From the NCBI GenBank assembly GCA_051362555.1, contig CM120640.1:26522225-26586224 (forward strand): 64,000 bases of DNA, read 5' to 3'. The translations under genes were made by a program, and so were the position numbers. Position 1 is the stretch's first letter, and every line of letters begins with the position of its first letter. Source of the DNA: Lingula anatina (taxonomy: Eukaryota > Animalia > Brachiopoda). The notes under the pieces are model-generated. The model was not told where the DNA came from. It saw only the letters and a program-made list of their open reading frames with translations, and made no database searches. This document shows, piece by piece, positions 28,201 to 63,793 of the stretch.

Positions 28201-28387
28201 GATATCTTACAGTAGGATTATTATTTTTTTATTGCAGACATCTTTCATCTCTTTTTATCTTCACTTTCTTGCAGATCCAAAATGTAAGGATGAATATTCT
28301 AACTGCCGTATTGTGGTTCAAGCAAGACTGTGTTCATACCAATACTATCATAAAGCATGTTGCAAGTCATGTAAAGTGCATAACTAA
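6346..28387 (+). CDS. THSD4: Thrombospondin type-1 domain-containing protein 4 / ADAMTS-like 6-like protein, 5'-partial (earlier exons lie left of the window), ~730 aa in window
   Basis: Hand-spliced exons, all AG/GT bounded and phase-consistent: 6346-6550, 11329-11507, 19696-19871, 20848-21371, 22425-22554, 23256-23463, 25987-26160, 26540-26698, 27320-27496, 27794-27941, 28275-28387 (TAA). The translation shows the ADAMTS Cys-rich end ([27 protein letters not shown]), a spacer (IPKGACNINITE...NYLALR...NGNWAIDWSG...GPINETL), six TSP1 repeats (e.g. WRISGFTECSHTCGGG, WNTTEWSECTTTCGLG) and a C-terminal PLAC domain (CKDEYSNCRIVVQARLCSYQYYHKACCKSC). Six TSRs plus PLAC and the VVQARLC motif are characteristic of the THSD4/ADAMTSL4 subgroup. 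Confidence 0.9.
7279..7340. repeat. (AT)n microsatellite, ~31 units
   Basis: Uninterrupted AT dinucleotide run. Confidence 0.97.
7515..7770. mobile_element. Palindromic MITE (PIF/Harbinger-like termini)
   Basis: Long imperfect inverted arms AGGGCCTGTTCACAATGAAT...ACCTAGCTACTGT and ACAGTAGCTAGGT...ATTTATTGTGAACGAGCCCT. Flanks are TAA and TAT (imperfect 3-bp TSD). Confidence 0.65.
13309..15528. mobile_element. Non-autonomous DNA transposon (~2.2 kb), Tc1/mariner-type TA target duplication
   Basis: Perfect 24-bp TIR CGGTAAAGTCTTGAAAATTTCGTC (13309-13332; reverse complement 15505-15528), flanked by TA on both sides. Subterminal repeats of (C/T)TTGAAAATTTCGTC and CpG-rich internal tandem units containing GGAGATCGTTCGCGAT. 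No transposase ORF. Confidence 0.85.
16257..16287. repeat. (CA)n microsatellite preceded by an alternating purine-pyrimidine tract
   Basis: About 15 CA units after gtgtgtgcacgtatgcatgcatgcacgt. Confidence 0.85.
17330..17365 (+). mobile_element. 3' terminus of a second, related HINE-like element
   Basis: TGTCTGTCCATTTGACAGCTTTGCTGCCTTTT is nearly identical to the 3' end of the element at 47192-47221. I could not delimit its 5' end. Confidence 0.55.
23517..23707. mobile_element. Palindromic MITE with nested inner hairpin
   Basis: ~50-bp inverted arms AGAGCATTCACATCGAGAGGAGCCGAGGTCTAGCA... and ...TGCTAGACCTCGGCTCTTCTTGATGTGAATGCTCT; inner inverted repeat AATCCTTTAATGGTCTCTCA / TGAGAGACCGTTAAAGGATT; CAATA on both flanks. 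Confidence 0.75.
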
Positions 28388-31472: not shown

Positions 31473-35297
<3,825 letters not shown>

Positions 35298-35792
35298 GTT
35301 GGATATTAGTAGAGCTATGCGTTCATTTATTCAGCAGTCACAGTTTCGTATTTATTTGTTTCAAACTGGCAGTGTAAAATCCTAACAGAATACATTCAAT
35401 TTCAATAAACAGACATTTATATAAACGTTAGAAGTAATGTGCTTTCTAAAAATGTGATGTTAGCTGATTTACTGAAACCATAAACGCATATGCATTCCAA
35501 GTTTCGGTGATGCAAATTATTCCTTGTCTTTTGAAACACCAATGGCCACATATATTGATGACGTAAAAATTTAAACATCACAACAACATTCAACAAGCAG
35601 GCGAGTAGTTTGGAGTTCTCGCCTTCAGTTTTTGTATCGCAAACTTTAATGTGAAACTATTTTACGTTGACTTTTGCAGAATGGATTAGGTTTGGGGCTG
35701 TTTAGTTTCAAAGAAAGCTAAAAGTTTCAGAGGAATCGAAAGAGTGCAATAATTGATTCCCCAAGTAGGCTTCACATGCAGTGGCAGTGGCG
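35298..35792. promoter_or_regulatory. Probable bidirectional promoter region shared by PSMA4 and the laminin-like gene
   Basis: The two start codons diverge and are only ~495 bp apart. The interval is locally richer in CpG than the gene bodies and contains CCAAT (35539-35543) and a CRE-like TGACGTAA (35559-35566). TSS positions cannot be read from sequence alone. Confidence 0.55.
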
Positions 35793-41700: not shown

Positions 41701-44700
41701 ATTTACATACCAGTAGTGCATGGCTGAATTCAGAAATTGTATGCAAGCTCTAAATCATGCTTTATCCGACACACTGATGTTAAATTTGTGAATTTTTCTT
41801 TGATATTCATTGATAATCAAATAGGTGTTTGAAATTGAATTTTACATGTATAACTTGTAACACTGCTAATTCTGTTAGAGCAGTGCTGCAGTGACCAAAT
41901 TACATTATGATTTATAAAATAATATGCCATGATATTTCCCTCCAGGTTGTCTGTGCCACAGCCCAGGGACTATTGGTGGTTCAGGTATATGTGAACCTGA
42001 TAATAATGGACAATGTCCCTGTAAGGAGTTTACTACAAATCGTATCTGTGACATGTGCATGGATGGATATTATGGACTAGAGAGCAACAACACCCAAGGT
42101 TAGCTTTTTTTTTTAGGCTTTGGCATTAAACCATCTCACCTTTCCATTTTTGTATTGTACTTTAAATACATTTAACTTCATTTGGACTACCATCACATAT
42201 TTGGTTCACTTCCTGCTGACCCAAAAGGCCCAGAACCTCATACTTGAATGTCTTGAAAATATTGTGTTCTGTGTTCTATTGAAAAAAGACCAAGATGCAT
42301 GTCTGAGTTTATATCTTGTCTCTTTATTCTTTGAGTAAAGTATAAACATATAATTTTTCTAATTCTACTCTCCCTCCTCCCTCTGGTGTCAGTGTTCTAA
42401 ATATCCGTCTTAAAACTGTTATTATAATTTCTAGGATTTTCATTATATTTTCAGGATGCAGTCCATGTAACTGTGATGTTGGAGGTTCCACCAGTCCAGT
42501 ATGTAATAAGACCACTGGACAGTGTCCATGCAGGCCTAATGTGGCTGGACTGATGTGTGATAGGTATTTGCATGCTTGTTGTACCTATTTAATTGTATGA
42601 TCACTTACACAAAACCCTTAACCCTTATATTACAATATTTTCACAAAGGTGCTCACTATTTTTCACAGTGATTTAAAAAAAATTCATTCATAGTGACATT
42701 CATATGCAATGGTTATACATCCATGTGTTTTCAACTGTTTCAGACCAGCAGATAATTACTACTATCCATCTGTACACTTCATTAGTGCTGAGTTTGAAAA
42801 TCTTCAAAACAATGCCTGGGACAGAAAGCAGACACCTGATCCTTTCTTTGGATTTGGATATGGAGTTCTTACCCTCACAGTAAGTAAAACAAGTTTGTCA
42901 TGATAAATAGCAAAGTAGCAAAATTACACACACTGCAACCTGACTAGATTCAGTTTTATGACCTGAAGAATTTTAAATGAGAGAAATGTTTTCGTCTTAC
43001 TCTTTGAAGGAATAGTAATGATTTTAATAATTTCTTTGCCTTCTTTAATTGATTGTAATGGTTTATCAGGGGGAGTCCACCACCCAGTTAGACATACCTG
43101 CAATCGACCAGCTCTCTGGTCAGTTTCATGTTGTCCTCAGGTACATGGCCAATGGCAGCATGGATGGCAACCTGACTGTGCTCTCTGGACAAGGTAATAT
43201 TTAACAATCACAAAGTACTTGTATGAAAATTGAGAAAATTTTTGTATTTAGTTCACTTGCATGCTATTGTCAAGCTGGGTGCATTCTAATGGTTTTTGTG
43301 AAATGTATTTCACAATATTGTTAAATTTTTACTTATTAGCTTTTATTTTAAATTTGAATTTTTTATTTCTCTCATAAAATAAATCATCACTAACATATCT
43401 CTTTCAGTCCCACAGTTAAGGCAGATCATCAGCCTCAACTTCTGTCCCACATGGTGTTATATTGCTGTTGGCAATGATGCTGTCATTGACTTGCAGCCTG
43501 GATCCTATACCATCCAGATCCAGGTTCCTTCTCAAACTGGGATTGAAATACTATTGGTAAGGTTATATCTGCTTTGTTGAAGGATATGTCACAGCATTTT
43601 TAGATTTCTATTTATTTATTATTGGTTTTTTTATCGCCAGGAAAATATATTTGATTGATTTCCCTGTATTGTGTAAATGCTATATTATCATGAAGGTTTC
43701 TTTATTAGTTAAATAAGAGCATGCCTGTTTTTTTTCCATCTGACACAACTAACAAACTTTTAAAGAAATTCTTATACTAATATTGGTTCCTGGGATATGC
43801 AGCTGTTCAGAGTAGAACTGCATGAAGTTGGTATTCTTAATTTAAAATTATTTGCATGTTGACTTTCTGATGATGATTTTTTGTGTTGGTTTTATGTTGT
43901 ATTTCAATACTAACCCCAGTTATGCATGTTGGTTAAAGGATCAGGTTATAGCTCTCCCAGTAGAGTTCAGGAATGCTACAGAGGTGCTGGGTGGAGAAGC
44001 CAACACATTTCATTCCACTTGTGATGTTGTGAGTAATCTGGCAAGGTCAGTATCTAGGCTGTAAAAGTGATGGTATGTTTGGTCTCCTCTTAAAGCATCT
44101 TGTTGGCATCCATAGTTTTGTTAGAGGTGATTTAGTTGATTATTAAGTAGAAAGTATGAAGGACACGTGGATTCAAGCTTTGATAAACCTTGTTTAGTCT
44201 TTGATAGTTTCCAAAGAATTATTATTGTCTTGAGTAACAATAAGTGATTAGGATTTGTAGAAAATGTTCTTTGGAATATCTACCTCTACCCTTAATTAAA
44301 CATTTGTTATTAGGTAAAAGAAACATTGCCTCTATTTTTTATCATATGGGCTCAGGTAAAAGAAACATTGCCTCTATTTTTTATCATATGGGCTCAGTAA
44401 ACAGACAAAAAATGTGACAATGGCTTTTAACCACATATCTAATATGCCATTTGTTTTACAGGGACCCTGCTAGGCAAAATTACTGTGATTCCCAAGAGTT
44501 CTCCCTGACCTCATACTACCTGAATGGTGCAGTGCCCTGTAACTGTGACATCCTGGGCAGTAATGGGACCATGTGTCAGCCTAAAGGTGGTCAGTGTACA
44601 TGCAAACCAGGAGTGACTGGACAAAGGTGTGACCAGTGCATGGTAGAGTTCTACAGCCTGACTTCAGCAGGATGTGCAGGTAATCACAAGTTAAATTAGA

Positions 44701-47700
44701 TCACAGACTGTTATGCTGTGCCATTGTACAGTCTGTCTGTCTGTCTGTCTGTCCATCTCTCCAACCCTCCCTCTATCCCTTCAGTAGACTGTTTGAGACA
44801 TTGGGAATGACCTGGCAACCAGTATTTTTTCCTGCACCTTACATTTGGTTCTTGTTTTCTGTAACACAAATGTCCAAGTGTGTAGACCTTTGTTTTCTTC
44901 ACAAATTTAAGTCCCTTCAGCAATAATTCTCACACTACAAAAATGTAAATCCATATTTCTTCTGATTTGTTTTGTTCAAAAGAAAATTTAACCATACATT
45001 CTTGTTTTTATGTACAGACACAGATGTGTCTGTACATATTGCCATCACCTGCGTCTGTCGTCGCCGTCGCCGTCGCCGATCATGTCGCCGTCGCCGTGCA
45101 CTTTCAGCGTTAACACCATAAGTGGAAGACAGTTTTACTTTTTGGCTTTATATTTACAGAGCTGATGAATATTCATAAAACACAGGTCAAGTTCGAAAAT
45201 CAGTATGATCGGGCCATTATTGTAGAATTTATGCTGTTTTTTCACTTTTCAGCATATATGCAACACTGTTAACACATTTCAAGGAAAACTGATAGGCCTG
45301 TTGTCATGAAACTCACAGGAGTAATCAATCTTACTAAAACGCAGATCAAGTTCGAAAATCGGCATGATCGGGCCACTATTTTAGTAGTTATGCTGTTTTT
45401 TCACTTTTCAGCATATATGCAACACTGTTAACACATTTCAAGGAAAACCCATAGGCCTGTTGTCATGAAATTCACAGGAGTAATCAATCTTACTAAAACG
45501 CAGGTCAAGTTCGAAAATCGGCATAATCGGACCATTATTTTATAAGTTATGCTGTTTTTTCACATTTCCTCAGATTCAATTCTTAGGCATGTTAACAGTC
45601 TCATTTAATTAATAAGATACGTAAAAGTGTTTGTTTGACATTTTCTGCATCTTTACAACATTGTTAGTTGATTACTTAAAAATGATGGTAAACTTGTAAT
45701 CGTGTATTGTGTAATAAGGTGTCAAAAATGGAAATAAACTCATATCATTGCAGTTTGTAAGATTCAATCATTCACTATGTTCAGAAACTCAGAATGGAGG
45801 AAATTGGACATTTGACACTGTTCTATTGATATTTTTCACATCTCATCAATTTTCTTAGTTGATCATATAAAAATGGCAGTAAACTGTTAATTTTGTTTTA
45901 TGTTAAAAAAGTGTTAAAAATGGAAATAAACCCATTTCAGAATAGTGCTGTCTTGTTTCACATTTCCTCAGATTCAATTTTTAGGCATGTTAACAGTTTC
46001 ATTATTTAATTAATAAGATAAGTAAAAGTGTTTGTTTGACATTTCCTGCATCTTTACAACATTGTTAGTTGATTTTGTAAAAATGATGGTAAACTTGTTA
46101 TCGTGTATTGTGTAATAAAGTTTCAAAAATGGAAATAAACTCATATCACTGCAGTTTGTAAGATTCAATCATTCACTATGTTCAGAAACTCAGAATGGAG
46201 GAAATTGGACATTTGACACCGTTTTATTGATATTTTTCACATCTCATCAGTTTTCTTAGTTGATCATATAAAAATGGCAGTAAACTGTTAATTTTGTTTT
46301 ATGTTAAAAAAGTGTTAAAAATGGAAAAAAAAAACATTTCAGAACAGTGCTGTCTTGTTTACATTTTGGCATTTTCAAGTTGTGACTTTGAAGTTCCATG
46401 GGCCGGAAGACCTTTGCTAGTCAAATTTTCTGAATATCCATAATACTAATGTTTTATTATTAAAAATTGATGGTCATTATGCTGTTAAACGTTATGTAAT
46501 ATTGCATCAAAATTTGGAAAAAAATATTTTGGGCACTGCTCCCATGATGACCATTTAAGAAAAATCATGTCACTTACTGTTCTCAAACTTACAGGAAAGA
46601 AACATGGGACTAAAATACAGCTTCAGTATGCAATGCAGTCTGTTTGGTAATTCTTTCTGCTAGTTAAACAGTTTTTTTTGTGAAAGTTTAATTTTTCACA
46701 TATTGGCATTTTCAAGGTGTGACTTTGAAGTTCCATGGGCTTGAAGACACATGCTAGTCACATTTTCTGAAAATCCATGATACGCATATTTATTATTAAA
46801 AATTGACGGTCATTATGCTGTTAACCACTATGTAATATTGCATCAGAATAGAAGAAAACACAATTTTGGGTGCTGCTGCCATGATGACCATTATGGGAAA
46901 ACCATGTTACTGATGATTGCCAAATGTTCAGAAAAGAAATACAGGACTAAAATGCAGCCTGAGTTGGAAAAACAGTCTAATTGGCTTCTTTTTCTGGAAG
47001 TTATACATTTTCAAAGTGTGAACTTGAACTGCCATGGGCCTGAAGCCTTATGCTTGTTACACATTTTACTTACATTGGTATTACCTGTTGAGCATAATTT
47101 AAATTTGATGTTGAATTTGCAGTTTTACATAATGTACTTTTGCATCAGAATTGACAGTAGCCTATTTTGTGCATAGTTATTTCCTGCTTTTTGTCTGTAC
47201 ATTTGACAGCTTTGCTGCCTTGTTTTCTCTTTAGCCTGTGAGTGTGCCAGCGATGACAAGATCTGTGACTTTGTTACTGGTCAGTGTAAATGTCCACCCA
47301 ATACACAGGGCAGGCAGTGTGACCAGTGTGTGGCCAACCACTGGGGCTGGGATGGCAAAGTAGGGTGCCAGGCTTGTGGTTGTAATGCCACTGGCTCAGT
47401 GAACCTGCAGTGTAACCTGACCACAGGTGTGTGTGCCTGTCAGCCTGGAGTTCATGGTGCCCAGTGCCTGGAGTGCCTGGATGAGTATGCCTTCTTCAGT
47501 CCCACTGGCTGTGTGGCATGTAACTGTAACACTGCTGGCAGCACAAGTACTGTTTGTGACAAGGGGAGTGGACAGTGCCCATGCAAGGTCAGTGCACATG
47601 GAAAGTCAAGGTGTATCTGCTGTGTTTTAATCTAATGCTAAGGAAACTGAACATTGTGATATGTTTAAGAAACATGAAAATTTTTATTGTTCAGAATTGA

Positions 47701-50700
47701 TAACACAAAGAATAAGCACTGATTTCACCAACTGAAACATTTGGTCTTAAACAAATGAATAGAACAGGTTCTTGATTTTAATTTTAAAAAAAACTTTGAT
47801 AGTTTCTATTCCTTTGTATACACTGATAATTACTTTTTTCAGAGTAACACAGTGGGCCAGTACTGTGGCAGTTGTAGGGCAGGAACATACCATCTGTCTA
47901 GTAGTTATGATACTGGCTGCCTGGACTGTATATGTATGGGTATCACTCAGAACTGTGCCAGCTCAGGACTGAGATACACACGGGTGAGAAAAATGATCAG
48001 AGCTCACATGTAGAATCATGTATGGTAACAATGTGTAGCATGTAAGAAAACAGGGAAATTTTACAAAAACTAGATGTCCATGCTCATGAACTATCCCTGC
48101 TGTTTTAGTTTTTTGCATTTTAATAACGTATATCATGATATTTGATTGATTTAATCACAATTTTAAAAACAATTTGGTAAATAGTATATATAATATAATT
48201 TAAGTGTCATATTGCTTGATTTCTTCCATTTTTTCATTCAGCAAACTCTTGCAGTAAACCAGTTTAATGATGGTATTAGCAAGCCATCCTTTGAAGTGAT
48301 GAATGCCACCGCATCCAAACCTATCAATGCCACAAACACACTGCTGAATGGCATCGAAGTCGCCCAGGCAACCATTAGCAACCCACAAGAACCTCTGTAT
48401 TGGAGAAGCATATACACCTTCATCAATGACTTCACCAAGTATTACGGATCCAGTCTAAACATGACTGTGCATTATATCAATGTCCTTGGGTTTGGAGCAC
48501 CACTCAACACCAGTGTGGTGTTGGTCACACCCACTCAGAAGAGACTGTACTATTCAGTGCCCGAAGTTCAAGTCAACACCACCACAACAATATCAGTGAA
48601 ATGGCTGGAGAGTTTCTGGAGGGTTGTGGATACTAATGCTCCAGTGAGTAGAGGGGAGTTCCTCACATGTCTGGCTGATGTGAAGTGGCTGTTGCTTCCG
48701 GCTTCCTGGTCAACAGGGCCCCATGTCACAAGGTGAGTGGTGGATATATGTGTGGAATTTAAACTCAAGAAACCTTGAGGAAAGTTAATTTTAGTTGTGA
48801 TAGTGTTCAAAATGACGAGTGTTACTTAAATAAGATTTATATTTCGACTTCTGAGGATTAAGATTAGTAAGAAAATATTCAATTTACACAGTATTAATAG
48901 ATATTCAAGTGGGTAGCATTGATACACATGTAATTTTTCAATCCATGTTTTCAGTATTGAAGCTGTGCAGTATGAAGAAGCCTCCACCTCAGGCACTGGG
49001 TCTTTAGCACTGTCAGTAGAACAGTGTGTATGTCCTCCTGGATATGATGGACTTTCATGTGAGGTAAGACATTAAGTTCATTAAATATAAATGGTGGTGA
49101 CAATAAAAACCATTCTTAATTTTATAAGTTATATAGTTTAATGCTTAAGAAATGTATGTGCCTGTTTGTGAATAGTTATCATTCATTTTCAATTTATCAT
49201 CGGAAGAAATCATTTGTCATAAAAAAGGTTGATGGTGTCTAAGGTATTTTAGAGTTGAAAACACTTTCTCAGCCAGCAACACAAAGGTATTTGCTAATTT
49301 CTTGTTAATCCATAACAGTGCAGAAGAGTTGCATATTTTGATTAATATGCCCCTGATGTATTTATTCCAGAGATGTGCCACAGGGTACAAGCGTGAGAAC
49401 GTGACCACCCATGGCTACCTGGGTGTGTGTATTCCCTGTGAGTGTAATGGCCATGCTGAGTACTGTGACCCAGACACTGGAGAGTGCAAGGACTGCAGGG
49501 ATAACACCACAGGTACGGAGACTGTATTGGCAGTGAAAGCACTCAGTCAATACCTACTTCAGATGTAATTACCTCAAATTAGTATGTTGCCTTTGTGGAT
49601 GGCATGCTGCCTGTTCCTGATCATGTAAAATCTTTTTATTTATAAGAATACAGATTTTACAGTTAACCTTGCCCAGTGAGCAACCTAATTATTATCTATT
49701 TGTGTAGGGATGAAATGAAAAATAAAGCAGGGTATGTAAAAAAAATACCCATATAATATATAATTACTATAGGAGCTGAAGTCAGATTGAGAGAAAGTCT
49801 CAAAAACCTTACAAATATTTTATTATAAGCTACAGTCTTTTGAAAATACAACACCAGTGGATATGCACATTCTTTTCGTTACAGTGTAACAACCAGGCAG
49901 AATTACTGAATTTTCTGTATTATTCAGGGACAAACTGTGAACTTTGTGCCATTGGTTACTATGGCGATGCTACCCAGGGGACCCCCAATGACTGTAGGCC
50001 CTGTCCCTGCCACAGCCCCAGGGTCATGGACCCCAGCTGTACTGAGGTGAACGGATCAGTGCAGTGTCTTAGCTGTGCTCTAGGTTATACTGGAGATATA
50101 TGTGATAGGTAAGGGAATTAGTCTAACAAGGGAACTTCTGGTCTTGGGATGGGTATACGTCTACTACATTTCTCACTGGAAATAAAGTGAGCATATATTT
50201 CTGTAAGACCTGAAATTTAAGGAAACAACAACAACAACAACAAAAAATGGTTTATTATTGGCCAAATTATTTTTTTACACATTTCTTCCTATTATATTTG
50301 TTCAGTTTGGAGTGTATCAGACTGTATGGTATAATGTTCTCACTTCCAGCTGCTTACCATTCTTCTATGGCAACCCTGAGGTTCAGGGGACTGGGACTTG
50401 CACAGAGTGTAACTGTAATGGGAACTCCCTGGACTGTGACACCAGGACTGGGGTATGCTCAGGGTGCAGCTCCAACACCACTGGCTTACACTGTGAGAGG
50501 TGTATAGAGGGGATGTTTGGAGATGCCTCACAGCAGAATTGTAGAGGTAAAATTCAGTGCTGTTTATTTCTGTTAAAGTAAAACATGGAGATGTAAAAAA
50601 AGCAATAATGTTGGAATCAAATTTCTTCAGTTCATCTAGACTACAGGTTCAACATATAAAGTGTATTGACTCTAGGCATAACAAGCAAAGGATATTATTT

Positions 50701-53700
50701 TGATATTTTAGTCCAAGAGATTCTATATTCTTATTCTTATCTCCAGGTTGTGACTGTGTAATGACTGGCTCCACTAGTGCCATATGTAACCACACCACAG
50801 GTCAGTGTGACTGCAGACCAGGAGTGGGGACCAGAGACTGTGGGAGCTGCCTGGAAAACTACTGGGGATATAATATCAGACCATTCAACAGTATGTATCA
50901 CTGATATTGGTTGCTTGTTTCATTGCTTTGTTGTATGTTCAACTCACCATGTATCAGAGGCAGTGATGCACAACATGTCCCTGTCTTTCATGTATATTAA
51001 AGTATGGGATAAGATAGTTGCATTTGTCCCTGAAAATTTTACTTGTGGATAAGGGTATATCATGATTATCACAATGTATTTTTAATAAAGAATTAATAGC
51101 ATAAAAAAAGAGACATCTAATATGATGATAATATTTTAGGTTGCATACCATGTGACTGTAATGTGGCTGGCAGTACTACATTACAGTGTGCTGGGGACAC
51201 AGGTGTGTGTTCATGTAAGTCTCATACAGCTGGGGACAAGTGTGACCAGTGTGCACCTGGACTATGGGGACTGCCATATAGACCATGTGAAGGTAAGATA
51301 TGTTAATGACACTGGGGTGTGGTAACCTAAGAGTAAGGACTGGAGGAAAGGTGAGGGCTGAACACCTGGATTTTGGTGACTGTCAGCCATATAAACTGTG
51401 TAAAGGTATGAACACAGTATGATACGTATATGAAAAACATTCAGATTATGGTAATGGGCTGCATAGTGAGAGCATATTTTTACAAGGAAAGAGATGTCAG
51501 GAATTGCTTGTTAACACTTACATGTATTTTTCATTTTGAATAGAAAACTTTTTATTCTGAAGTCGTTTCTCCTGTTCTACTTCCAGCGTGTGCCTGTAAC
51601 ACCACTGGTAGTGTGAATGCATCAGCCCCCTGTGACACCGTATATGGTCAATGTGAGTGTAAGCCTGGGGTGACAGGCAGGCAGTGTGACCAGTGTGAGA
51701 AATTTTTCATTGGATTTGGTCCTGCTGGATGCACTAGTAAGTATACAGCGTACAATGTCTTCTAGACAATGCCTCGATCTTTTCAATGGGGCAAATTTGT
51801 GGATTTTTGCAATAATATATTTTAAAGTCATAATTACTTATAATTAGAACAAAATTTAAAAAACAGGCTACATTTAGTTCTATTCTATGTAGTAAAAGCA
51901 CCACAAATGCTATAAAGAAATACAATTTCTATGATTCTGAAATTATGTATCTGGAAAAGAGCAAATTATTACTGTTACAGCATACTTGTGTCCCATGGCT
52001 GATATCTATATCCAACACACAGTAAAAAGCGTGATGAAGTAGTAGTTGTCTGCTTTTAAAGCCTATGGCTCATTAAGTACATGTATGTAGTCCATGCTTA
52101 GTTACAATGATATGTGTGTTAATGTAATTATAATATATATCCTTTTTCCATTACAGGATGTCTTGATTGCCAGTATTCACTGGGTACAGATACACTTGTC
52201 TTGCAAGACACCTGGCAAACTTACTGGAATGTCAGCAGTACTGTAGGGGGCCTTGTGGCACAAGATGCACAGCTCCAGCAGCTCACTCAGACACTGACGG
52301 GGACTCTGGACAGTATTGGATTCTCAGAAAGCACTCTCTTCTCCCTGGAGGCTACATTGAGGAACATTACAAATAAGGAAGCTGGCTATAATCAGAGTGT
52401 TATCAGTCTGCAGTCAAGGGTGAGGAAATTAATCTATATATTTATTTCTTCTTACTTTGCCAACATTGTTGCTTTAAATGAAATGCATCTAAACTTATTT
52501 TCTCATGTTGACATTAATTTAGGTTCAAATGGCTGTTGATGCTGCTAATTCGTTAAGAAATGAAGCAAGAGCAGAGCTGAACAGGCTGCAAGACATCAAG
52601 AATGATGTCAGGAGTGCACTGCAGAGTGCTCTAGAAATTGAAGCTGTATCTGTTGGTACAATAAGTCAACTGACCAACTACAGTGTGCAAGTAGAACAGG
52701 TACAGTGTTTAATGTATATATATTTTCATAGCCCATATATAAATTATGTATTATAGAGGTAGAAGATTAAAAGAATGTCTTGGTTATTTGCACATAATCT
52801 CATTTTAAAAGTAAGCAAGTAAGAAGTTTTTGCAATTGGTTTCAATAACGAGTTGCAAACAATGTCATTAAACGAATACTTACATTCTATTATTCAGCTC
52901 CTTGCCAAAAGCAGAGAAGTAAGCAGGTATCTGAACCAGAACTTCTCAGCAGAATTGTCCAGAACAGCAGCAGAATTGGCTGCTGGCATTGCAACAGCTA
53001 CAGATGCACAGGCCACCAGTGAGCTGATTCAACAACAGGTAAGAATGAAGTAATTTTTGTCATGATTATGATAATATTTTCATGGGGATGTAAATATAAC
53101 TAAACTATATTTTGAATATCATCTTATCATTTTACAACTTAATTTTGACATTGCTAAAGTTTTGCATCTCTATTTTCATCAGAGTGCTGTGTGTGCTAAC
53201 TTAGAAGGTGCAGCTCTAAATGCTCAGTCTGCCCTGAGCCAAGTTGAGGCCAACATACAGGCCATAACCACTGCAGCAAGTAATGTAATGTCTGCCAGGG
53301 ATAGAGTGATGGACATACTCAACCAAACTGAGGTACACATTTGATGGATAGCTTTCTTATACACTAATATTCAGTGAGCTTGTGGGAAGGATATAATTTT
53401 TTTTTTTAATTTTTAATGCGCTTGCAAAATGTTCTTTTGATATTAAAAAGATGGCTTCAAATTCAGTTGTTTAGGATTAACATTCATAATATGTATATGT
53501 GGATTTAAAATGTATTGGATACAAGGACTTTACCCTGTTAAAGGGATAATAACTCTTCGTATGAGATCTATATTTCACAATAAAAACATTGTGAATAAAT
53601 CATAGAAATATAATATATTCTGTTTTACCACAAAAATGGCAGTTATAACTATTATTCTGATATCTGAGCTTGTCTTTAGACCACGTGACCTCCATTGATG

Positions 53701-56700
53701 GCTATACTCTGTTAAAATCTCTTAAGAGATTTTAACAAAAAAACAAACTTTTTAGAAAAAAACCAGGGACTAACTTTGAATGTAAAAATGGATTCATTAA
53801 CCATTGGTAAGTATAGGAAAATTGTTGTTTACTCCAGGAAAATTAATTTTTTGGCCGAAACGAAGAGTTATTATCCCTTTAAGATTTTTGTCTTATATAA
53901 AATAATTGGTTCAAAACATTTTACTTTTAGTATCAAAAAAGCTATGCATTGACCCTGTTTAGTGAGGCAGAAGCCATACTAAACTTGACAGCAGTTACTT
54001 TGAATGCCAGCAGAGACTCTTTCCTTGAAGGCCAACAGGCATTTGCTGAGGCATCAGCAATTGTTGCAGATGGGATTCCTAAAGACAGTATGTACTGCCC
54101 ACTATATTAATGCTAATTTGAAGTTACACTGCTTGCCATTATATGTAGTTTGAAGCATGTGCTAGGAAAAGAGAAGAGTTTTTTTTATTTTATCAAGTAC
54201 ACATCTTCACAGCATAAATTTGAATGTGATTTGCCTCATTGAAGTGTAATGCAAAATGCTTTTTTAGCACTGCACAAAGCAGTTTTAATTGATTTTGATA
54301 CCAAAAAATGTGAATGTATCTCAAAATATAGATTTGTGATTGTATAGAGACCTGAACCACAGAACCCCATCAAGATGAAGCCTTGAAGTACAGATTTGAG
54401 CAAATCACAGTCATTTATTTGGACTCCTCTAAATGTGGTGGAACTTGGGCAAAATTGTGGTTCACTGTATTGTGGACTGGGCTAATAATTTTTTGACAAC
54501 TTCTTGGTCTTGATGGGTTCTTGGGTTTAGTGGGAGTGATAGCATGCTAGAATGAGGTTTATGCTGCATGTTGCCTGACACCTTTGTAGCCACAATTGCT
54601 TTTTACCCTTTTCTTCTTGCCTTGGAGACAACAGTTTGACAGAATGCTTTAGTGCTCCTTAAACCAAATGGATGCATTCCAACCTTGAACTGGTTCTCTT
54701 TCTTTACAGTTCTGATATCCAGCTACATTTCCTGTTTTTTTTTATTATTATATCCCTAACTCATCATGATAATTGTTTTTATTTCTAACTTCTTCTTGAA
54801 CCTAAAGCATTATGCAGTCATGGTCACTGTGAAACTCAGTGACAATAACACACCAACTCCTGGATGTCTGCCTCTTGCTCTCTGTATATATATTCTGTAC
54901 CTGGAAGAATTATCCTCTCAATATCCTTCACATGAGTGAATTATCTTTCCCCCTCCATTCCCCCCTTGATGAGTGACATGAAAGTGGGTTTGGTTCTGCT
55001 AACAGGTGCATGCAGGTTAAAAGGTTTATATGTGATCCATGTAAAAATTTCAGACCAAATCCCACTGGATGCTGCAGGTCACCAGTACATGATAATGTTT
55101 ATGGAGAACAGAGTAGAGAATGGGCCCAAGTACAGATACCTGGAGCTGTTCATCACTCCAGCAGGTATAGAAACAAACAACGTGACAGTCCAAATAAATC
55201 AGGTGTACAATAGTGCTATACCAAACATGACCTTTGTGGTCAGTGCAGGAGAGGTGAAGAAGGTGAACATATCTGTTGAGCTCAGGATGCAAGGGTCAGT
55301 AATGACCAGGCAGGGTCTGGAGATTTTGGCCACTGATAGAATAGTTGTCTATGCCTTGAACAAGGATGAGTTCTCCACTGATGGGTTCCTGTCTCTTCCC
55401 AGAGAATCTCTGGGGACAGACTACTACACAGTCTCGTATTACCCTCCTAATTATAAAACACAGGTGGGTGTGGCAGCTATGGAGGATAACACTGAAGTGA
55501 TCATCACTTTGCCACAGCAGACCTTCACAAGCAGTCGCGTGTTTGTGCTGTACAGGGACAATATTTTCAGGAATGGTAACTCATTCACGGTGATGATGAA
55601 CAGGTTTGATACTCTCCAGTTACAAGACGAGGTGGCTGCTGATTTGACAGGCACACGCATCCAATCCAGCAAACTAGTGGCAGTGTTTAGTGGGAATGTA
55701 CGAACTAATGTGGGACAAGGCACCCGTTCTAGGGACCACTTGGCAGAGCAGATTCCACCAATCAGCTCATGGGGGAGGAACTTTGCAGTGGTGCCAATTC
55801 CAAATCGTACCACTGGAGATGTGGTCAAGATAGTTGCCAGCCAGCCAAATACAGAACTGATTGTTGCTAATGCTACAGAAGAAATGGTCTATACACTCAC
55901 CCAGGCAGGGAGTAGTAGAACACTCCTGCTACCGTCATCTACTTACTGTTTCATTGCAGCAACAAAACCCATCCTTGTAGCTCAAATTGTTTACAGTCAG
56001 TTGACAGAGGAGAGCATTGAAAAGGCTGACCCGTCAATGATCCTCATCCCGTCCATCGAGCACTACAGCTCCAACTACCATTTTGCCCTGCCAAAGCCCT
56101 CAGTGGGCAACTACACCCACTACTTTCTGATAGCCATTGAGGACAGTGCCAAGAATGGGGTCATTCTTGATGGTCAGCCATTGCCCAGTGCTGCCCTGTG
56201 GCACCCTATCCCCTTCACCACCTTAGTGGGTGGGTATTTTGTGGTCAGTGGAGACCAGGCACACACCATTACTCACACTGACCGCTCAGTGACCTTCATG
56301 GGGGTTATGTATGGAGCAGGAGACAGGGAGAGCTATGGACTGCCTATTGGGATGAGGGTACGAAACCAGGTAGGTCGACTGATTTTTATGGTTAAATTTC
56401 AGAAAAATTTAGATTTTAGAAGTTTAAGAGATTAACATTTCCATTTCATTGCTTATGTTATAAGTAAGTCACAAATATCCTGTCTTTACATTTTTGTATA
56501 GGTGTATATGTTTATGTTGATTATCTTTTTTCTTCTTTTTCATCTCTCCTCAGTATGAAGTTACAGGTATGTCTTTTTCAGTACTGTTTCATTCTCGTGA
56601 AAAACAATAGCAAGCAATCATAATTTGATGCTTTCTTATCTTGGAGTTAAGCCAATGTGTATATTCTTAGGGATAAAGTGGTGTGTTAACATTTTCAGAT

Positions 56701-59700
56701 ATAGATGCCTTATCCTTTTTCGATATAACTATATATTGCATGTTCTTACAAAAAGTGGTTGTCATTTAAGTTTCTATATGTATATATTTCAGCACTTCAA
56801 ACAACATTGGAATCATCAGGCAAAAAGTTTGTGGTAATGTACATGGAGAATAGGATCGAAATCCCTACTCAACCTTTTGTGGAGCTGTTTGTAACCCCAG
56901 CAGAGAATGTGTTCAGTGTACTGGTCAACATCAACCAAGTGTATGACCAAGCATATGGCAACCGGACATTGGTCATTCAGGGAGGACAAGTCAGAAAGGT
57001 GGACATTCCAGTCAGTTTTAGAGTAGTGGGGAATTCTCTTACTAGGCAGACCCTAGAGATCACCAGCTCAGAAGCTGTGGTGGTGTATGGAGTCAACAAG
57101 GATGAGTATTCCAGTGATGCCTTCCTGGCTTATCCTACTACTTCACTGGGGAAGGAGTATTATGTAGTGTCCTATGCACCTCCCACGATTAGCACAGAGT
57201 TGGGGATAGCTGGGGTGCATGGTAATACCAGAGTGAGTGTCACTTTCAGTCCTAATGTTCAGGTGTCATATGGTAGTGTCACATACGGTGGTGGTGACAC
57301 TCTGACAGTGACTTTGAACCAGTTCTCATCTCTACAGCTACAGAGCCAGTTTGGGGATTTGACTGGGACACGTATAGTATCAGACAAACCAGTGGCAGTT
57401 TTCAGTGGCAATGTCCGCACCAGTGTCCAAGGCAACTCAAGAGATCATCTTGTCGAGCAGTTGACTGCTGTTCAGTATTGGGGCACCGAGTTTGCTACTG
57501 TACCCGTACCACAGAGGACTGTAGGGGACATCTTCAGGGTTGTGGCAAGTGCAGACAACACGATTATTAATGTTCGAAATTCCACCAGTGTTGTGACATC
57601 TTATATCAACACTGCAGGGGGATTTGTACAACTACCTCTGGATTCAGCAACGTATTACTACATCACATCCAACTTCCCCGTGCAAGTTGTGCAGATAGTG
57701 AAAAGTCAATTAAATGGTGAGCTGGCAGATCCCTCCATGTTCCTGCTGCCCCCTATAGCCAGATACAGCACAGGGTACCACTTCTCCCTCCCAGCACAGG
57801 CAGCCACTGGGAGCTACACCCACTACTTCATGCTGGTTATAGAGAACAAGGACAAACATGGCTTGCTGCTGGATGGACAGCCCCTGAACACAGTCCAATC
57901 CCTGACTTGGAACACTATTCCAGGGACATCACTGGTGGGGACGTACTTTGAGCTCTCTGGGGACCAGTCTCACTTCATGACCCACTCTGACCCTAGTGTC
58001 ACCTTCATGGGACTCCTGTATGGTGCTGGGGATAAGGAAAGCTATGGTCTACCTATAGGACTGAGATTTGCAGATAATTTGGTGAGTGCACTTATTAGTC
58101 TTATAACGATGAAATTGATTTGTAATATTAGTGTATGCTAATTTACCATTAAATAATATCTTTTGAAATAAGAGAATGAGAATCATTTTATTATTTTTTA
58201 AATTGATTTTTTTTCTTCTTATCATTTCAGGAGGGAATACAAGGTAAAGAAACCTTTAAATAACATATATTTTTTGTGGCTTAATCTTCAAGATATTAAA
58301 ATACCAAATTCAAATGTTTTTTTTTACTTATTAATGTTTTGTGTGGAGATTGCATTTGACTAGCTTCAGAATGATTTTACGACTGAAACCTGAAGTGAAA
58401 TGAGATTAAACTAACACACTGTTTTACATTGCACGCCTTTTTGTGAGTAACACAAGCTTTTTTGTAACTATTATAGCTGCACCACCAACAATAGATGCAG
58501 GTAGAGAATACATGGTCGCTTTCATGGAAAATAGAATCGAAAATCCTAAATATCAGTACCTGGAGCTTTTCCTCACTGCAGCAGGGGACGCTGTGGCTGA
58601 TATATCCGTCAGCATATCACAAGTTCATGACAGAAATCTTGGTAATAGTTCTGTGGTTTTAAGACCAGGAGAGGTGACACGGGTAAATATTTCTGTACAG
58701 TTGAGAATGGAGGGCACCACTCTATCAAGGCAGGGAATAGAAGTGAAAGCCTCTGGGAACATCATCCTGTATGGTCTGAACAAGGATGAGTATTCCACTG
58801 ATGCATTTTTGGCCTTACCACAGAATGGCATTGGCACAGATTATTACACTGTCTCTTACTCACCGGCCACCACCAAGACCGAGTTTGTCATTGTGGGTAC
58901 CAGAGATGACACTGTGGTCACAGTGACCCTCCCAAATAGAAACAATGTAGCAGTCCAGTGGGCAGGTCAAATATATTCCAGAGGAGAGTCATTCAAGTTG
59001 ACATTGAACAGGTTTGATACAGTCCAGATCCAGAGTCCAGACTCTAACTCAGACCTCACTGGCACTCACGTCCAGTCTGATAGACCAGTGACAGTCCTAA
59101 GTGGAAATGTTAGGACTCAGGTCGGCCAAGGAGTGTCCCGAGACCACCTGGTGGAGCAGATCCCTCCTGTGTCTTCATGGGGGAGAAACTTTGCCACAGT
59201 GCCTATCCCAAACAGAAGCACGGGGGATATTTTTAGAGTTGTTGCAAGCCAGGATAACACTATTGTCACCATAAGGAACACAGATGGGGACCAAGTCAAG
59301 ATTTTAGATTCAGCAGGAGGATACACAGAGTTCACTATATCATCTACTGCTTACTCCTATATTACGTCTAACCATCCCATATTGCTTGTCCAGATTGTAA
59401 AAAGTCAGGTGTCATCATCAACATCTGAGGTGGCTGACCCAGCTATGATGGTGGTCCCACCTTTTGAGCATTACAGCAACAATTACCACTTCTTATTGCC
59501 TTCTGGTGTGGCTGATACTTATGTCCACTATTTTCTGTTGGTCATTGAGTCTGACCTGAGAAATGACCTAAGACTGGACGGCACATTCATGACTGGGTTG
59601 CCATGGCAGAGTATACCTGGGACAAATAAAGTAGGCACTTTCTTTGAGGTTACTGGGAGCCAAGCCCATGTATTAAATCATGTGAACCCCAATGTAACAT

Positions 59701-62700
59701 TTATGGGGATGCTGTATGGAGCTGGTGACAGGGAAAGTTATGGACTGCCAATAGGCATGCGCTTAGTTGAAAATGTGGTGAGTTGAAATTTTAAAGAACT
59801 TGGTTGGAATATAAATATCTAAACTTCTTTATGAATTATGCATGTATTATTACATAAGCCTGAGTTTATACAGTTAATAGGGCTTGTTTTGCAACTGTAT
59901 ACTCAAGTATGGTAAATATTGCAGATGATGCATAATACATTTGGCTATGCAAGAAGAAAGCACACTTAGCACAAAACACATTTTGTCAGTGTTTAATCAA
60001 TTTGCCATAGCACTTTGTTTGAAAGCATGAATTTTATTGTTTTTTGCACATTTTTTACATTTTACCTAGGATCAAGGAGGTAAGATTGGATAACTAGAAA
60101 CCAATAGTATAATGCTTTGTGATTCTTGTGTCTTTTTCCTCATCCTTTTGTCCCTTTAATTAATATGTAAGCTTTACATTTTCTATTTTTCAGTATCTTA
60201 ATCCCCAAAAGCTAAATAATTAATCACTGACTTTCCAGACTTTCTTGAAACTTACCATCAAAACATGTCTTCTTTTGTATCGGTCTGAGTTTTGACTTTA
60301 CTATTTGATAATAGCCAGTTGTACAGCGGCATTACTATTCATCATTATGCTATGTTTTCCATTTCATGACTAGGACAAAATGCATCTACAGGTTAAAGCT
60401 GAATTTTGAAATAATGATTATTATGTATGATTATGCACAGTGTATGTGTTAGTCAGGCACAGGTGCTGTTGGGGTAGGGAGTAGTATTTGTATACATGTA
60501 TGGAATATGGGCCGGTGTCAACATAAGTATTGGGTTGTTTTCATTTTCTATGTACATATTACACTACATAATGGCATTTTCAAATACATTATCTCTGCTT
60601 GCTAGCTGACCATCTCTTAGTGTTGGCATCTTTGAAGTTTTTCTCTTTTTGAATTCTCTGTGAGGGAATTGTTTAACTGTAATCACAGAAATATATTCAC
60701 TGCAACGACATATTTGTGAAATAATCATGATGAGGATATCCATTTTTACTGAATTAATGAATTTCACATTGAAGTTGTAATTTCAATAAATCTTTTTTAT
60801 TTTAAATGATGATTTTCTGAATTTTGGGGTTTTATTTACGAAAAAACCCTTTTAGAATATAAGATAAAACTGAAAAGTAGAAATTAGGATATTTGTACAT
60901 TTTTAATGTAGAATTTGTGTCAATATCATATTTAATGTGTCAAATATTAACTCTAACTTTTTAATATAGGTTTTGAGAGCTGGACCAACATTTCCATGCA
61001 GTTGAGGACTTTGTCCAACAGTACAGAGCAGCTGATGCTGGACACACAGGTCTTAGCACAGCAGGCAGAACAACATGCCCAGACTGTCACTGCAGCTGCA
61101 CAGGCTATTCAAAGGTACTGCTGTGTGAAAATCTTGTCCTAGATTATACTTGTGATATGATGTTTAAGAATTCATAGCAATAATAATGTAGTCATACAAA
61201 TGACGGATTACAATCTAAATTTGAAAGAGTTTGTTTTGCCTTGAATCTGCTGTAATTTGTTTGAATATTTAAGTTGCCATTGTTTGATGTGGATATATCA
61301 AGATTTGTAATATTGTAAGATATATCAAAGACACCATTACAAGATCATACTGAATCCAGTGTTGTCAAATTTTTAGTAAAGTGATTTGCCTTATTCTGAC
61401 AATAAATACATTTTTAAAAATGACATTAAAGGTGTAGTTTAGCCATCTATACATCTCCTTACTATGTTTCCAGGGAGTTCTCCCTTGTAGAATCCAGAGG
61501 TGCCATGGCAGTGGATGCTATACAAAAGTATCAAGATGTTGCCAGAACTCTGAACTCCTCTCTGTACCTGGCTCAAGATGCCAACAACACAGTGACTCAG
61601 GCCATGCAGTCCATGCAGGACATCACAGTGGTAGACCTCCAGAACCAGGCACAGACCAGCTCACAGGCTAGTTTGGACATGAAGGCCCAAGTTGATGCAA
61701 GGGTTATAAATCTTGCAGGTAATTATGGTTTAATGAAGTGGTTTATTGTAGATTTTCTACATTTTGGATAAAGTAATTGCACTCAAAAGGAGTCCAGTGT
61801 TATCAAGTTTTCAGTAAGATGAATAGACTTTGTACTAAGTGTGTACTATAAAGGTTTTTTTTTCATTTTTGGGGAATTTTTTTAAAGACAGGATATTCAT
61901 GATTGCCAATGAGAGCTAACACAGCAATACTCATAAATTCATCATACATTATTTTAAGTTTAGCCAATTTTCATATTTCTTTATCAATAAAAGTTTTATA
62001 AAGTTACTTTTTTAACCAAGGCAAAATAATCAAACTGAAATTTTCTATGATTATGTAAAGCCATGCCGTGTGTTAGCCTGCCTTTAAATATATGACAGAT
62101 AATATTTTTGCTGAATCTTTATGTGAACCAATTTGTTTGATTAGGTCTCAACTCCCAGTTGAATTCTGCCAACTCCAGTCTGCAGTCAGCAGTAGGCATG
62201 TGGGCTGGTTTAGAGACACAGATAGCCAACCTGGAGGCAAGAGCTGCACAAGTGAATGCAGCTTCTGCAGGTACACAGGCACTATAGATAGATAGAACAA
62301 TAATACTGCCTTGTATTATTACATTTCTTCTATATTTCTTAATTTTTGTTGCGACAGTCACCAGTGCTGTGTGCCACAATTCTGTGAAATTATAAGCAGT
62401 TTTACATTGGGTATTTTTAAACAGGAACAATCTCGAATATCAAAAAATCATTTCTGTTTTTCAAAAGGTTTGTTTTCAAATTTTCAGATCCAGGCATTAT
62501 GACCTTGCTGGACTCAGCTAACAATACAGCCACCCAGGCTCAACAGCTGAGTGACCAGGTGCTCCAGGCTGACCAGAGTGACCAGAGCCAAATCCAAGCT
62601 CAGGAGGATCTCGTAGCTGTCATACAGACTAGTGTTAACAGCATATCAGTGGTCACTGCACAAATTAATGCAGAATGTAAGTCGATTTAAATTGAAATGA

Positions 62701-63793
62701 ATTTACTGTGTAGGGTTTTTTTTTAATTGGTTTGTCGATGGATTTGCCGAAGAAGTTGCTGGAATTTTTTTTAAAAAATATACTTTGTAAAAGAAATACA
62801 TTTGTATCCCACTGCAGTGAAATGATGTATCAAGTAACTGATGCAATTCTAAAGTATTGAAGAACATAGATAAGGATTATTTGAAGGGAGACATAGTGAT
62901 TTAAAATATCTTTTTGTATACCTTGTGTCAGCCTTTTGAAACCCCAATTTTCCAATTTTCAGTACAAAGCTACAAAATAATGTACAGTCAGATGCAGAGT
63001 CGACTGACCGCAATCAACCAATTCCACAGTGAAACTAATGCCACAAGATACCGACTATCAGCAAAAATGGCGAGCATAGAGGCCAAGCTTGCTCGTGCCA
63101 AGCAGCTAGCATCTAGCCTTGAGCGCCCTGTGAGCTTCCCAGGCAGTGCACACATCACAGTGCAAAACCCATCCCTAGAGAGCAGAATATTCAATGAGCT
63201 GTCCCTAGAGTTCAGGGCAAGCCAGGAGAATGCTACAGGGGTGATCTTCTATGCTGATGGCACAGCTGATAACTCCTGGCTGACTCTGTATGTGAACCAT
63301 GGTACATTGGTTTTTGAATTCAACCTGGGGAGTGGCATAGTAAGAATGGAGAGCTTAGCTACTATTTGCAGTGGCTGCTGGCTCAAAGTTTTAGCCAACA
63401 GGTAAGGTGGTAGCAGCATCTAGGCTGCTGTGATGTGATGGATTCTAGAAGTTAATGACAATGACATGAGTTTGTACGATACCTTATGCCAGTAATGTTT
63501 ATATTAGTGAAAACTTCCTTTTTATTAAGTTAATGAATACTGGTGATTATTCATTAAGAATGTTACAAGTTATTTTAAGATGTTATTGGTATAATACATT
63601 CTCCAGGGATGAAAAGGAAAGTAGATATTAATACATGGGAATATTTCTTAAAAGGTATACCAGCACTGGTCACCTGACAGTGACCAGAATGTCCACAGGG
63701 GGCTCTACTACAGCATATGGAGAGAACAATGTGGGGAACTCCCTCCAACTGGGGGCAGACTTGGTCCTTGCAGGAATGCCATCCAATGCTAAG
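35793..63793 (+). CDS. Laminin alpha-like chain (signal peptide, LN, LE repeats, LF-like, LE, L4, LE, coiled coil interrupted by 3 IgGFc-binding-type domains, LG1...), 3'-partial
   Basis: 42 phase-consistent exons: 35793-36128, 37302-37532, 38066-38104, 38381-38458, 40182-40374, 40658-40789, 41138-41313, 41590-41695, 41946-42098, 42455-42563, 42744-42879, 43070-43193, 43408-43556, 43939-44045, 44462-44679, 47235-47587, 47843-47983, 48242-48732, 48955-49063, 49371-49512, 49928-50108, 50350-50546, 50747-50890, 51140-51292, 51587-51736, 52157-52419, 52523-52699, 52898-53038, 53183-53332, 53931-54087, [55054-56369, 56554-56566, 56793-58081, 58231-58243, 58477-59777, 60070-60079], 60970-61114, 61474-61718, 62145-62270, 62488-62676, 62963-63401, 63655-63793. 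Signal peptide [19 protein letters not shown]; LN motifs [15 protein letters not shown] and [17 protein letters not shown]; alpha-type LE2 ([17 protein letters not shown]...[14 protein letters not shown]); many LE repeats; L4 domain ending [16 protein letters not shown]; CLDC start of a heptad region; LG start (ELSLEFR...[19 protein letters not shown]). Confidence 0.9.
38519..39719. mobile_element. Non-autonomous hAT-like DNA element (~1.2 kb) with a 5-bp flanking duplication
   Basis: Imperfect 11-bp TIR CAGTGCACTCG / CAGTAAACTCG (reverse complement of 39709-39719), TACTG directly flanking both ends, and a CpG-rich interior in an otherwise CpG-poor intron. Confidence 0.6.
44312..44397. repeat. 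Exact 42-bp tandem duplication
   Basis: AGGTAAAAGAAACATTGCCTCTATTTTTTATCATATGGGCTC occurs twice head-to-tail (44312, 44354). Confidence 0.9.
45010..47223 (+). mobile_element. Helentron-associated non-autonomous element (HINE / DINE-1-like)
   Basis: 5' hairpin ATGTACAGACAC-agat-GTGTCTGTACAT (45010-45037), (GTCGCC)n microsatellite (~45055-45097), and central tandem arrays (~159-bp units at 45183/45342/45501; ~398-bp units at 45560/45958; ~300-340-bp units at 46366/46703/~47005). A 3' subterminal IR TGTCTGTACAT (47192-47202) is followed by a short stem-loop GACAGCTTTGCTGCC, and both flanks are T-runs. This matches the canonical HINE layout. Confidence 0.8.
53542..53878. mobile_element. Kolobok-like MITE (337 bp)
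   Basis: Perfect 19-bp TIR AGGGATAATAACTCTTCGT at both ends with TTAA on each flank (53538-53541, 53879-53882). TTAA TSD with RR...YY termini is typical of Kolobok; piggyBac termini start CC. Confidence 0.8.
55054..56369 (+). CDS. Laminin cassette exon 1: IgGFc-binding protein N-terminal-type domain
   Basis: 1316-nt exon, tttcag acceptor (phase 1), cag|gtaggt donor (phase 0). Motifs [75 protein letters not shown] are typical of the FCGBP N-terminal (IgGFc_binding) family. Confidence 0.88.
56554..56566 (+). CDS. 13-nt microexon (YEVT+g) completing cassette module 1
   Basis: Preceded by a ~30-nt pyrimidine tract ending ctcag and followed by gtatgt. It converts phase 0 to phase 1 exactly as needed to join 56369 to 56793. 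Confidence 0.72.
56793..58081 (+). CDS. Laminin cassette exon 2: IgGFc-binding protein N-terminal-type domain
   Basis: 1289-nt exon, ttcag acceptor (phase 1), ttg|gtgagt donor (phase 0). Motifs [63 protein letters not shown]. Confidence 0.88.
58231..58243 (+). CDS. 13-nt microexon (EGIQ+g) completing cassette module 2
   Basis: Pyrimidine tract ending tttcag, donor aag|gtaaag; phase 0 to phase 1, same length and position as the microexon in module 1. Confidence 0.72.
58477..59777 (+). CDS. Laminin cassette exon 3: IgGFc-binding protein N-terminal-type domain
   Basis: 1301-nt exon, tatag acceptor (phase 1), gtg|gtgagt donor (phase 0). Motifs [70 protein letters not shown]. Confidence 0.88.
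60070..60079 (+). CDS. 10-nt microexon (DQG+g) completing cassette module 3
   Basis: T-rich tract ending cctag, strong donor gag|gtaaga; phase 0 to phase 1, matching the phase-1 acceptor of the coiled-coil exon at 60970. Confidence 0.68.

Follow-up and report, generated by a model that had tools for sequence, protein, structure and literature searches.

A Lingula anatina laminin alpha-type gene model with three FCGBP_N modules in the middle of its coiled coil

The gene model and its mid-rod insert

In this study we describe a window of 64,000 nucleotides (nt) from Lingula anatina (GCA_051362555.1, CM120640.1, 26,522,225-26,586,224 forward), the whole stretch of DNA that was analysed, in which a gene for what is by its sequence a laminin alpha-type chain carries three FCGBP_N modules in the middle of its coiled coil. 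All positions are window coordinates, and all parts of this gene lie on the plus strand. Rebuilt from the coordinates, the gene model has 42 exons from an ATG at 35793 to 63793, where it leaves the window inside the first LG domain (LG1); it encodes 3,487 amino acids (aa) without a stop, and all of its introns are GT-AG. A Pfam scan of 14 exon pieces gave a match for 13 and none for one, and it recovered the complete domain set that the earlier note, a first reading of the letters by a model, had expected: Laminin_N, laminin EGF, Laminin_B, three times IgGFc_binding (PF17517) and Laminin_G. The same note had placed the exit from the coil at 54087 and its restart at 60970, both in phase 1, with a stop-free spliced path of 1,314 aa in between. 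The rebuild returned both borders and this path, which comprises 3,942 nt over six exons and corresponds to about 144 kDa. The in-frame insertion in mid-coil is confirmed in the gene model.

The insert is built from three big exons of about 1.3 kb, each of which runs from phase 1 to phase 0 and is followed by a micro-exon that brings the phase back to 1. Module A (55054..56369) is a single exon read in RNA, and the 13-nt micro-exon behind it (56554..56566) is found in RNA reads between A and B. Module B (56793..58081), covered by RNA in all four runs, and module C (58477..59777) are followed by predicted micro-exons of 13 nt (58231..58243) and 10 nt (60070..60079) that would restore the frame in the same way. 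When the spacer introns were scanned for strong AG...GT candidates of 6-60 nt, we found one of length 3n+1 in each (13, 13 and 10 nt); in introns 1 and 2 it was the only candidate, and intron 3 held two 3n candidates besides. Since each big exon passes from phase 1 to 0 and each spacer intron offers one 3n+1 candidate, the arrangement is beyond chance. Because the insert as a whole runs from phase 1 to 1 and its units are multiples of three, the frame survives when all of it, or any one module together with its micro-exon, is skipped, and a direct join 54087^60970 is likewise in frame (2,173 aa). The insert contains one cysteine. It can hardly be an assembly artefact or a recent non-functional insertion: A, B and C are intact 1.3-kb frames with canonical splice sites and are 50-52% identical to one another, the GC content at third codon positions of the insert exons is like that of the host gene, CpG is depleted throughout, and both spliced RNA and one-to-one relatives in another species are found.

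The three IgGFc-binding exons of the earlier note held up in full, as each matches PF17517 over positions 1-297 of the 297 in the profile (203-224 bits at a cut-off of 25.6; E 1e-59 for A, 2.1e-61 for B and 3.4e-66 for C). An AlphaFold2 model of module C with 63 aligned homologues reached a predicted local distance difference test score (pLDDT) of 94.7 and a predicted TM-score of 0.93 and is almost all beta; an input of three sequences had given pLDDT 56, and the model from 63 homologues was used. Profile comparison revealed internal repeats of about 105 aa, with 97% for r2/r3, 81% for r1/r2 and 74% for r1/r3; the fourth repeat, r4, was unmatched (1-3%, with at most 1.8% in 15 shuffled controls). 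From the model, the module is likely compact and made of up to four sandwiches, and if these close into a ring, as the internal repeats suggest, its N- and C-termini would be adjacent. By sequence, no solved relatives of the module were found. Foldseek with the module model gave scattered beta-sandwich matches (TM at most 0.17), and VIA-align a best Z of 8.2 over 86 residues at a root-mean-square deviation of 2.7. As no solved structure matches the whole module, we draw no function from structure matches. The domain FCGBP_N is known from secreted animal proteins and from gliding bacteria, with slime adhesion suggested for the latter (PMC4948705), and its role is called unclear (PMC11796319). 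For FCGBP itself, binding of IgG was not reproduced (PMC8267560), and the name 'IgGFc-binding' is therefore uninformative on function.

The interrupted rod and its host chain

The N-terminal half of the coil (52157..54087) begins with a retained CxxC (52159-52170; C1451/C1454) and ends with exon 53931-54087 at the phase-1 donor, and the C-terminal half (60970..63120) restarts in phase 1. The coil split at its midpoint that the earlier note described stands; in place of its lengths of about 296 and about 290 aa, we measured 291 aa between CxxC and insert and 288 aa behind the insert. The sum of 579 aa is near the length of about 600 aa that is usual for a laminin coiled coil. Against 300 shuffles, hydrophobic residues show a 3.5-residue periodicity in both flanks (z 3.1 and 3.0) and none in modules A, B and C (z -1.0, 0.4 and -0.3). 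The first half ends with Gly-Ile-Pro-Lys-Asp at donor 54087, and P1743, its sole proline, stands three residues ahead of the insert. The second half gives a weak Laminin_II match below the cut-off (E 0.008), and its end aligns with the laminin alpha-1 mini-E8 structure 5mc9_A. No RGD and no furin-type site was found in the rod.

The gene opens with a start codon, a hydrophobic N-terminus, which is likely a signal peptide, and an LN domain (exons 1-5, 35793..40220; Pfam Laminin_N, PF00055, on two exons). For LN exon 2 the best solved-structure matches are laminin alpha-1 (8dmk_A) and alpha-5, and for LN exon 1 netrin-4 and alpha-1 are about equally good matches. In the gene model there follow an array of about five LE repeats, then one LF-like insert and another four LE repeats (40221..47917). 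The LF-like insert, the first of the short arm, measures about 195-200 aa (residues 521-715, about 42744..44537); its body, in exon pieces of 29-49 aa, gave no Pfam LF match, its position, size and C-terminal junction fit LF, and the junction of the LF end with LE matches the LE5-LF-LE6 structure of laminin beta-2 (5lf2_A, E 2.9e-22). Then come an L4 domain (Laminin B, domain IV; 48242..49027, PF00052 E 1.2e-8) and a third LE array (49371..51736), taken from the model and with PF00053/PF24973 on two scanned exons. Behind the rod lies LG1 (63124..63793; PF00054 E 1.2e-6, PF02210 E 7.3e-6, 5mc9_A E 1.4e-7), the only LG domain inside the window; laminin alpha chains have five of them at the C-terminus. 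Across the coding sequence (35793-63793) the CpG observed/expected ratio is 0.04-0.21, as for a methylated gene body, with 0.19-0.21 in the insert versus 0.04-0.13 in the laminin parts. In the intron at about 45000-47150 one can see by eye a block derived from repeats, within which two stretches (about 45190-45560 and 45560-46360) are duplications.

The short arm does not follow the known alpha types. Two L4 domains are described for alpha1/2 and a first insert of about 580 aa for alpha3/5 (PMC5338690); since the host has one LF-like insert of about 200 aa, placed after about five LE repeats, and one L4, it is neither. Like alpha-3B and alpha-5 it combines an LN of alpha type with LE arrays, a first insert related to LF, a subsequent L4, the coiled coil and LG, but the long arm of those chains is without a large globular insert. 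Its LN and its coil end with LG1 best match alpha-1 structures (8dmk_A and 5mc9_A), whereas alpha-1 and alpha-2 have L4 for both inserts and no long-arm insert, and the first insert of the host ends like a beta LF. The L-beta segment of laminin beta chains is a small cysteine-rich knob of about 30 aa; the host insert, in contrast, has 1,314 aa with one cysteine and sits in an alpha-type chain, and beta chains are without LG. In beta chains an LF domain of about 220 aa with a CBM35-like fold comes after a truncated LE5; what the host appears to have in common with them is an LF-like insert at this place and an interruption tolerated in the coiled coil (PMC6744579). Judged from these domains, the short arm appears to mix alpha and beta features, and the chain may belong to a separate laminin subfamily.

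The coil itself might be read in a different way, namely as a chain that folds back on itself, with the two halves paired antiparallel in the style of SMC proteins, the module triplet at the apex and no need of beta and gamma chains. The halves of 291 and 288 aa, the helix break at the insert and a divergent chain whose short arm is not of the standard alpha type would go with this. We consider it improbable, as any insertion at the mid-point also yields equal halves, the end of the coil can still be aligned with the E8 segment of alpha-1, and summed length and CxxC at the coil start fit a trimer (PMC6744579). In laminins the CxxC region at this place provides three chain-linking disulphides (PMC6744579), and it is the retained CxxC together with a summed coil near the usual length that argues for a heterotrimer.

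RNA reads and relatives of the modules

Four raw RNA runs from three studies, out of nine by species label, were used (X1, X4, X7 and X9, of which X1 and X4 are stranded). They were mapped on 51000-58150, which covers modules A and B; module C and the 3' joint 60079^60970 lie beyond this range. Depths are given per exonic base, as converted from bin depths, and without the four bins (51717-51955, 53390-54106) that repeat reads had swamped. We found laminin exons and module A at depths of 0.81 and 0.78 in X1, 1.62 and 1.69 in X4, 4.29 and 4.55 in X7 and 5.63 and 5.51 in X9, so that the ratio of A to laminin is 0.96-1.06 in all four runs. Module B was read at 1.38, 2.28, 3.10 and 3.23 in the same order, that is 1.7 and 1.4 times the laminin depth in X1 and X4 and 0.72 and 0.57 times in X7 and X9. 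For A and B together the ratio is 1.33 (X1), 1.22 (X4), 0.89 (X7) and 0.78 (X9). In the stranded runs all reads of both modules follow the direction of laminin. Reads that pass from A through the micro-exon into B number 3 in X1 and 5 in X7, and the laminin joints 52699^52898 and 53332^53931 are present as well. These data support that modules A and B are included, at a depth close to that of the laminin exons. A 345-nt element at 53538-53882, which resembles a miniature inverted-repeat transposable element and has perfect 23-nt inverted ends, is covered by RNA reads that stem from its copies elsewhere and run to hundreds or thousands.

Depth and strand also bear on the question of whether the three exons might be a separate FCGBP_N transcript nested inside the laminin intron 54088-60969. 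In favour of this one can point to an in-frame ATG, accompanied by a weakly hydrophobic stretch, at 76-85 nt upstream of exon A, to stand-alone FCGBP_N proteins with several modules, which are common, and to the joints at the boundaries of the insert, which were not seen in RNA. If transcripts started from this intronic ATG, 175, 298 and 390 base-reads would be expected in the bin of the first 9 bases of A in X4, X7 and X9, against 17, 29 and 37 if they were spliced at 55054; we counted 19, 26 and 93. Intron coverage upstream of 55054 is thus far below the prediction from that start and agrees with splicing at 55054 rather than with transcripts that begin at the ATG. In addition, the modules are read on the same strand as laminin, and their depth matches that of laminin across runs that differ sevenfold. 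Directly behind module C there is no stop codon and no AATAAA or ATTAAA, but a clean donor and then a 3n+1 micro-exon in phase with the next laminin exon. A nested gene is hence a highly unlikely explanation.

The best relatives of the modules are open reading frames from Logan, with 55% identity of A to P0234, 48% of B to P0058 and 54% of C to P0056. For each of the three the longest contig is given as 8,714 nt, and therefore they probably come from one genomic contig of another species. For the module tree 22 of 56 extracted rows were excluded as redundant or distant, which left 34 modules. In this tree A, B, C and the three Logan frames form one clade (support 98/95), to which rows of Lingula anatina LOC106170605 (P0208) are sister. 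Within the clade A pairs with P0234 (100/99) and C with P0056 (80/83); B has no firm placement. Forcing A, B and C into one clade was rejected by the approximately unbiased test (p-AU 0.003, 16 rows), and with it a recent triplication of the modules. As their monophyly is rejected, the triplication predates the split of the window species and the species of the Logan frames, which by the tree is probably a lophotrochozoan. Both this age of the triplet and the atypical host chain, with a beta-sized LF-like insert followed by L4, go beyond the earlier note. The frames of P0234, P0056 and P0058 continue into Val-Ser, as from a GT donor, and the spacing between the last motif and this point equals that of the window donors, which suggests from sequence that they share exon ends with the window modules. 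In lophotrochozoan tandem homologues such as P0001 and P0002, and likewise in P0003, P0054, P0210 and P0211, a Cys/Asp-rich linker of 36-49 aa stands between modules; the window modules abut, and no remnant of the linker motif was found in the insert region. The micro-exons are presumably what remains of a Cys/Asp linker exon.

Like FCGBP and invertebrate FCGBP_N proteins, the host has the PF17517 module, which often occurs in tandem and in varied secreted proteins; identity of the window modules to P0001 (LOC106163541, Lingula anatina) is 40-43%. Unlike those of FCGBP, the host modules are flanked by coiled coil and without VWD-C8-TIL repeats, and they are internal, whereas most family members have the domain N-terminally (PMC4948705). 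Other fusions with matrix rods are seen in P0001 and P0208, both from Lingula anatina, which combine FCGBP_N modules with collagen repeats and EGF domains. Very long proteins made mainly of tandem PF17517 modules are P0051 (Ambystoma mexicanum, 7,017 aa, 17 PF17517-matched stretches), P0052, which has a terminal ZP module, P0055 and P0069.

The laminin architecture was not met again. Length searches with PF17517 found no laminin-chain domain (Laminin_N, laminin EGF, Laminin_B, Laminin_G_1/2) beside it in 50 matches of 759-2,165 aa, nor in 29 matches of 2,560-5,000 aa, where one Laminin_G_3 stood in an unrelated context. BLASTP of the laminin parts against 198 collected proteins gave one weak EGF match, Pfam found no laminin chain in 16 of the 198 (long, or with the weak EGF match), and none of 26 metagenome loci had laminin parts. 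The blanks from protein searches are weak, since these were word-limited or clustered at 50%, with P0001 absent from the representatives list. A survey of 974 FCGBP_N proteins has no 'laminin' in the main text, and the six mentions in its Fig. S5 are all Laminin_G_3. Literature searches, in whose scope subscription papers did not fall, gave no architecture of FCGBP_N with a laminin chain, and the available parts of PMC11260871, PMC7333891, PMC12749355, PMC13425148 and PMC13063508 hold nothing on it. The structure of laminins is presented as practically complete, with the small L-beta segment as the sole interruption of the long arm (PMC6744579). Within the literature and proteins searched, a laminin alpha-type chain with FCGBP_N modules in mid-coil is supported as a new architecture variant, in line with the earlier note, to whose writer no such laminin was known.

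A proposed head on the laminin long arm and the neighbouring genes

With somewhat more confidence than doubt, we read the gene as coding for an alpha-type chain whose three mid-coil FCGBP_N modules are mostly spliced in and looped out as a likely ligand-binding head. Both joints between rod and insert, together with module C, are very probably part of the mRNA, and it is probable that the insert loops out from the heterotrimer, with the register resumed behind it. The host would assemble with predicted beta and gamma partners into a stalk of normal length; its helix would break at Gly-Ile-Pro, the three modules would bulge out, and the helix would restart after Gly-Gly. A 144-kDa head of this kind might add or replace a lateral binding site on the long arm. 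By analogy with vertebrate laminin, which binds agrin at the central long arm (PMC6744579), the chances are about even that it forms an adhesion or glycan/matrix-binding site on the long-arm flank. As to its origin, an FCGBP_N module presumably arrived by phase-1 exon shuffling and was triplicated, and the usual Cys/Asp-rich linker exon shrank to a frame-keeping micro-exon.

Several points weigh against the looped-out head and its splicing. Of the two junctions that the earlier note had singled out for RNA, 54087^55054 is absent from the 15 of 29 joints displayed (which include four of eight expected exon joints), and 60079^60970, outside the mapped range, was not seen either; what RNA did bear out are modules A and B and the joint between them. 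The missing 54087^55054 says little, because three ordinary laminin joints are likewise missing among those displayed. In X7 we counted 7 reads over 54080 and, over the 9 bases that open A, only about 3 read-equivalents (P 0.03-0.29, depending on the loss rate assumed), which may reflect some skipping of the insert; the corresponding counts are 2 and 2 in X4 and 2 and at least 2 in X9. X4 also shows about two intronic reads behind 54087. RNA numbers are small (5-48 read-equivalents per class), and at many exon sites the reads depart from the window sequence, so that they stem from other individuals or a close relative. Looping out needs adjacent module termini, for which the internal repeats are the argument, and r4 does not match the others (1-3%). 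That P0234, P0056 and P0058 share a contig, and that laminin lies on it, is our inference.

An isoform that skips the insert is possible. One might go further and take the insert as a regulated cassette, skipped as a whole or by single module units in some tissues to give plain and decorated laminins, which would be compatible with the structural part of the looped-out reading. All skips keep the frame, the X7 imbalance points the same way, and so does the depth of B in X7 and X9. However, the depth of A equals that of laminin in all four runs from three studies, and skipping therefore cannot dominate in these runs; B lies above laminin in the other two runs, so that its ratio scatters both ways, and no joint that skips A is among the 15 displayed. 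On balance we regard such regulation as rather unlikely.

If the looped-out head is correct, a laminin coiled coil is able to continue behind a loop as large as 144 kDa. The mid-rod insertion point would be a site that could carry engineered cargo, in the region that binds agrin in vertebrates. FCGBP_N, shared by gut mucus and gliding bacteria, would be placed in a fixed geometry for a search for ligands, and the high-confidence model of a single module can guide such work. More tentatively, and with the doubts prevailing, the chain might represent a separate old branch of laminin alpha with a mid-rod 'socket', filled here by a constitutively spliced, deeply conserved FCGBP_N triplet. In that case the laminin rod would serve as a scaffold for display and provide a matrix with a laterally placed adhesion head of mucus type.

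Two further genes lie in the window. On the minus strand, at about 31490-35300, is a gene for proteasome subunit alpha type-4 (Pfam PF00227/PF10584; PDB match with E 1e-27). It is arranged head to head with the laminin gene, with some 500 nt between its probable start at about 35298 and the laminin start at 35793, and the two may therefore share a promoter. An ADAMTS-like gene occupies about 6300-28390 on the plus strand, with cysteine-rich, spacer and TSP1 exons and no protease domain in view. It has a low-complexity exon rich in Ser, Tyr, Arg and Gln at about 20850-21370, and near 28280-28385 there is, by eye, an apparent last exon that we take to be of PLAC type.

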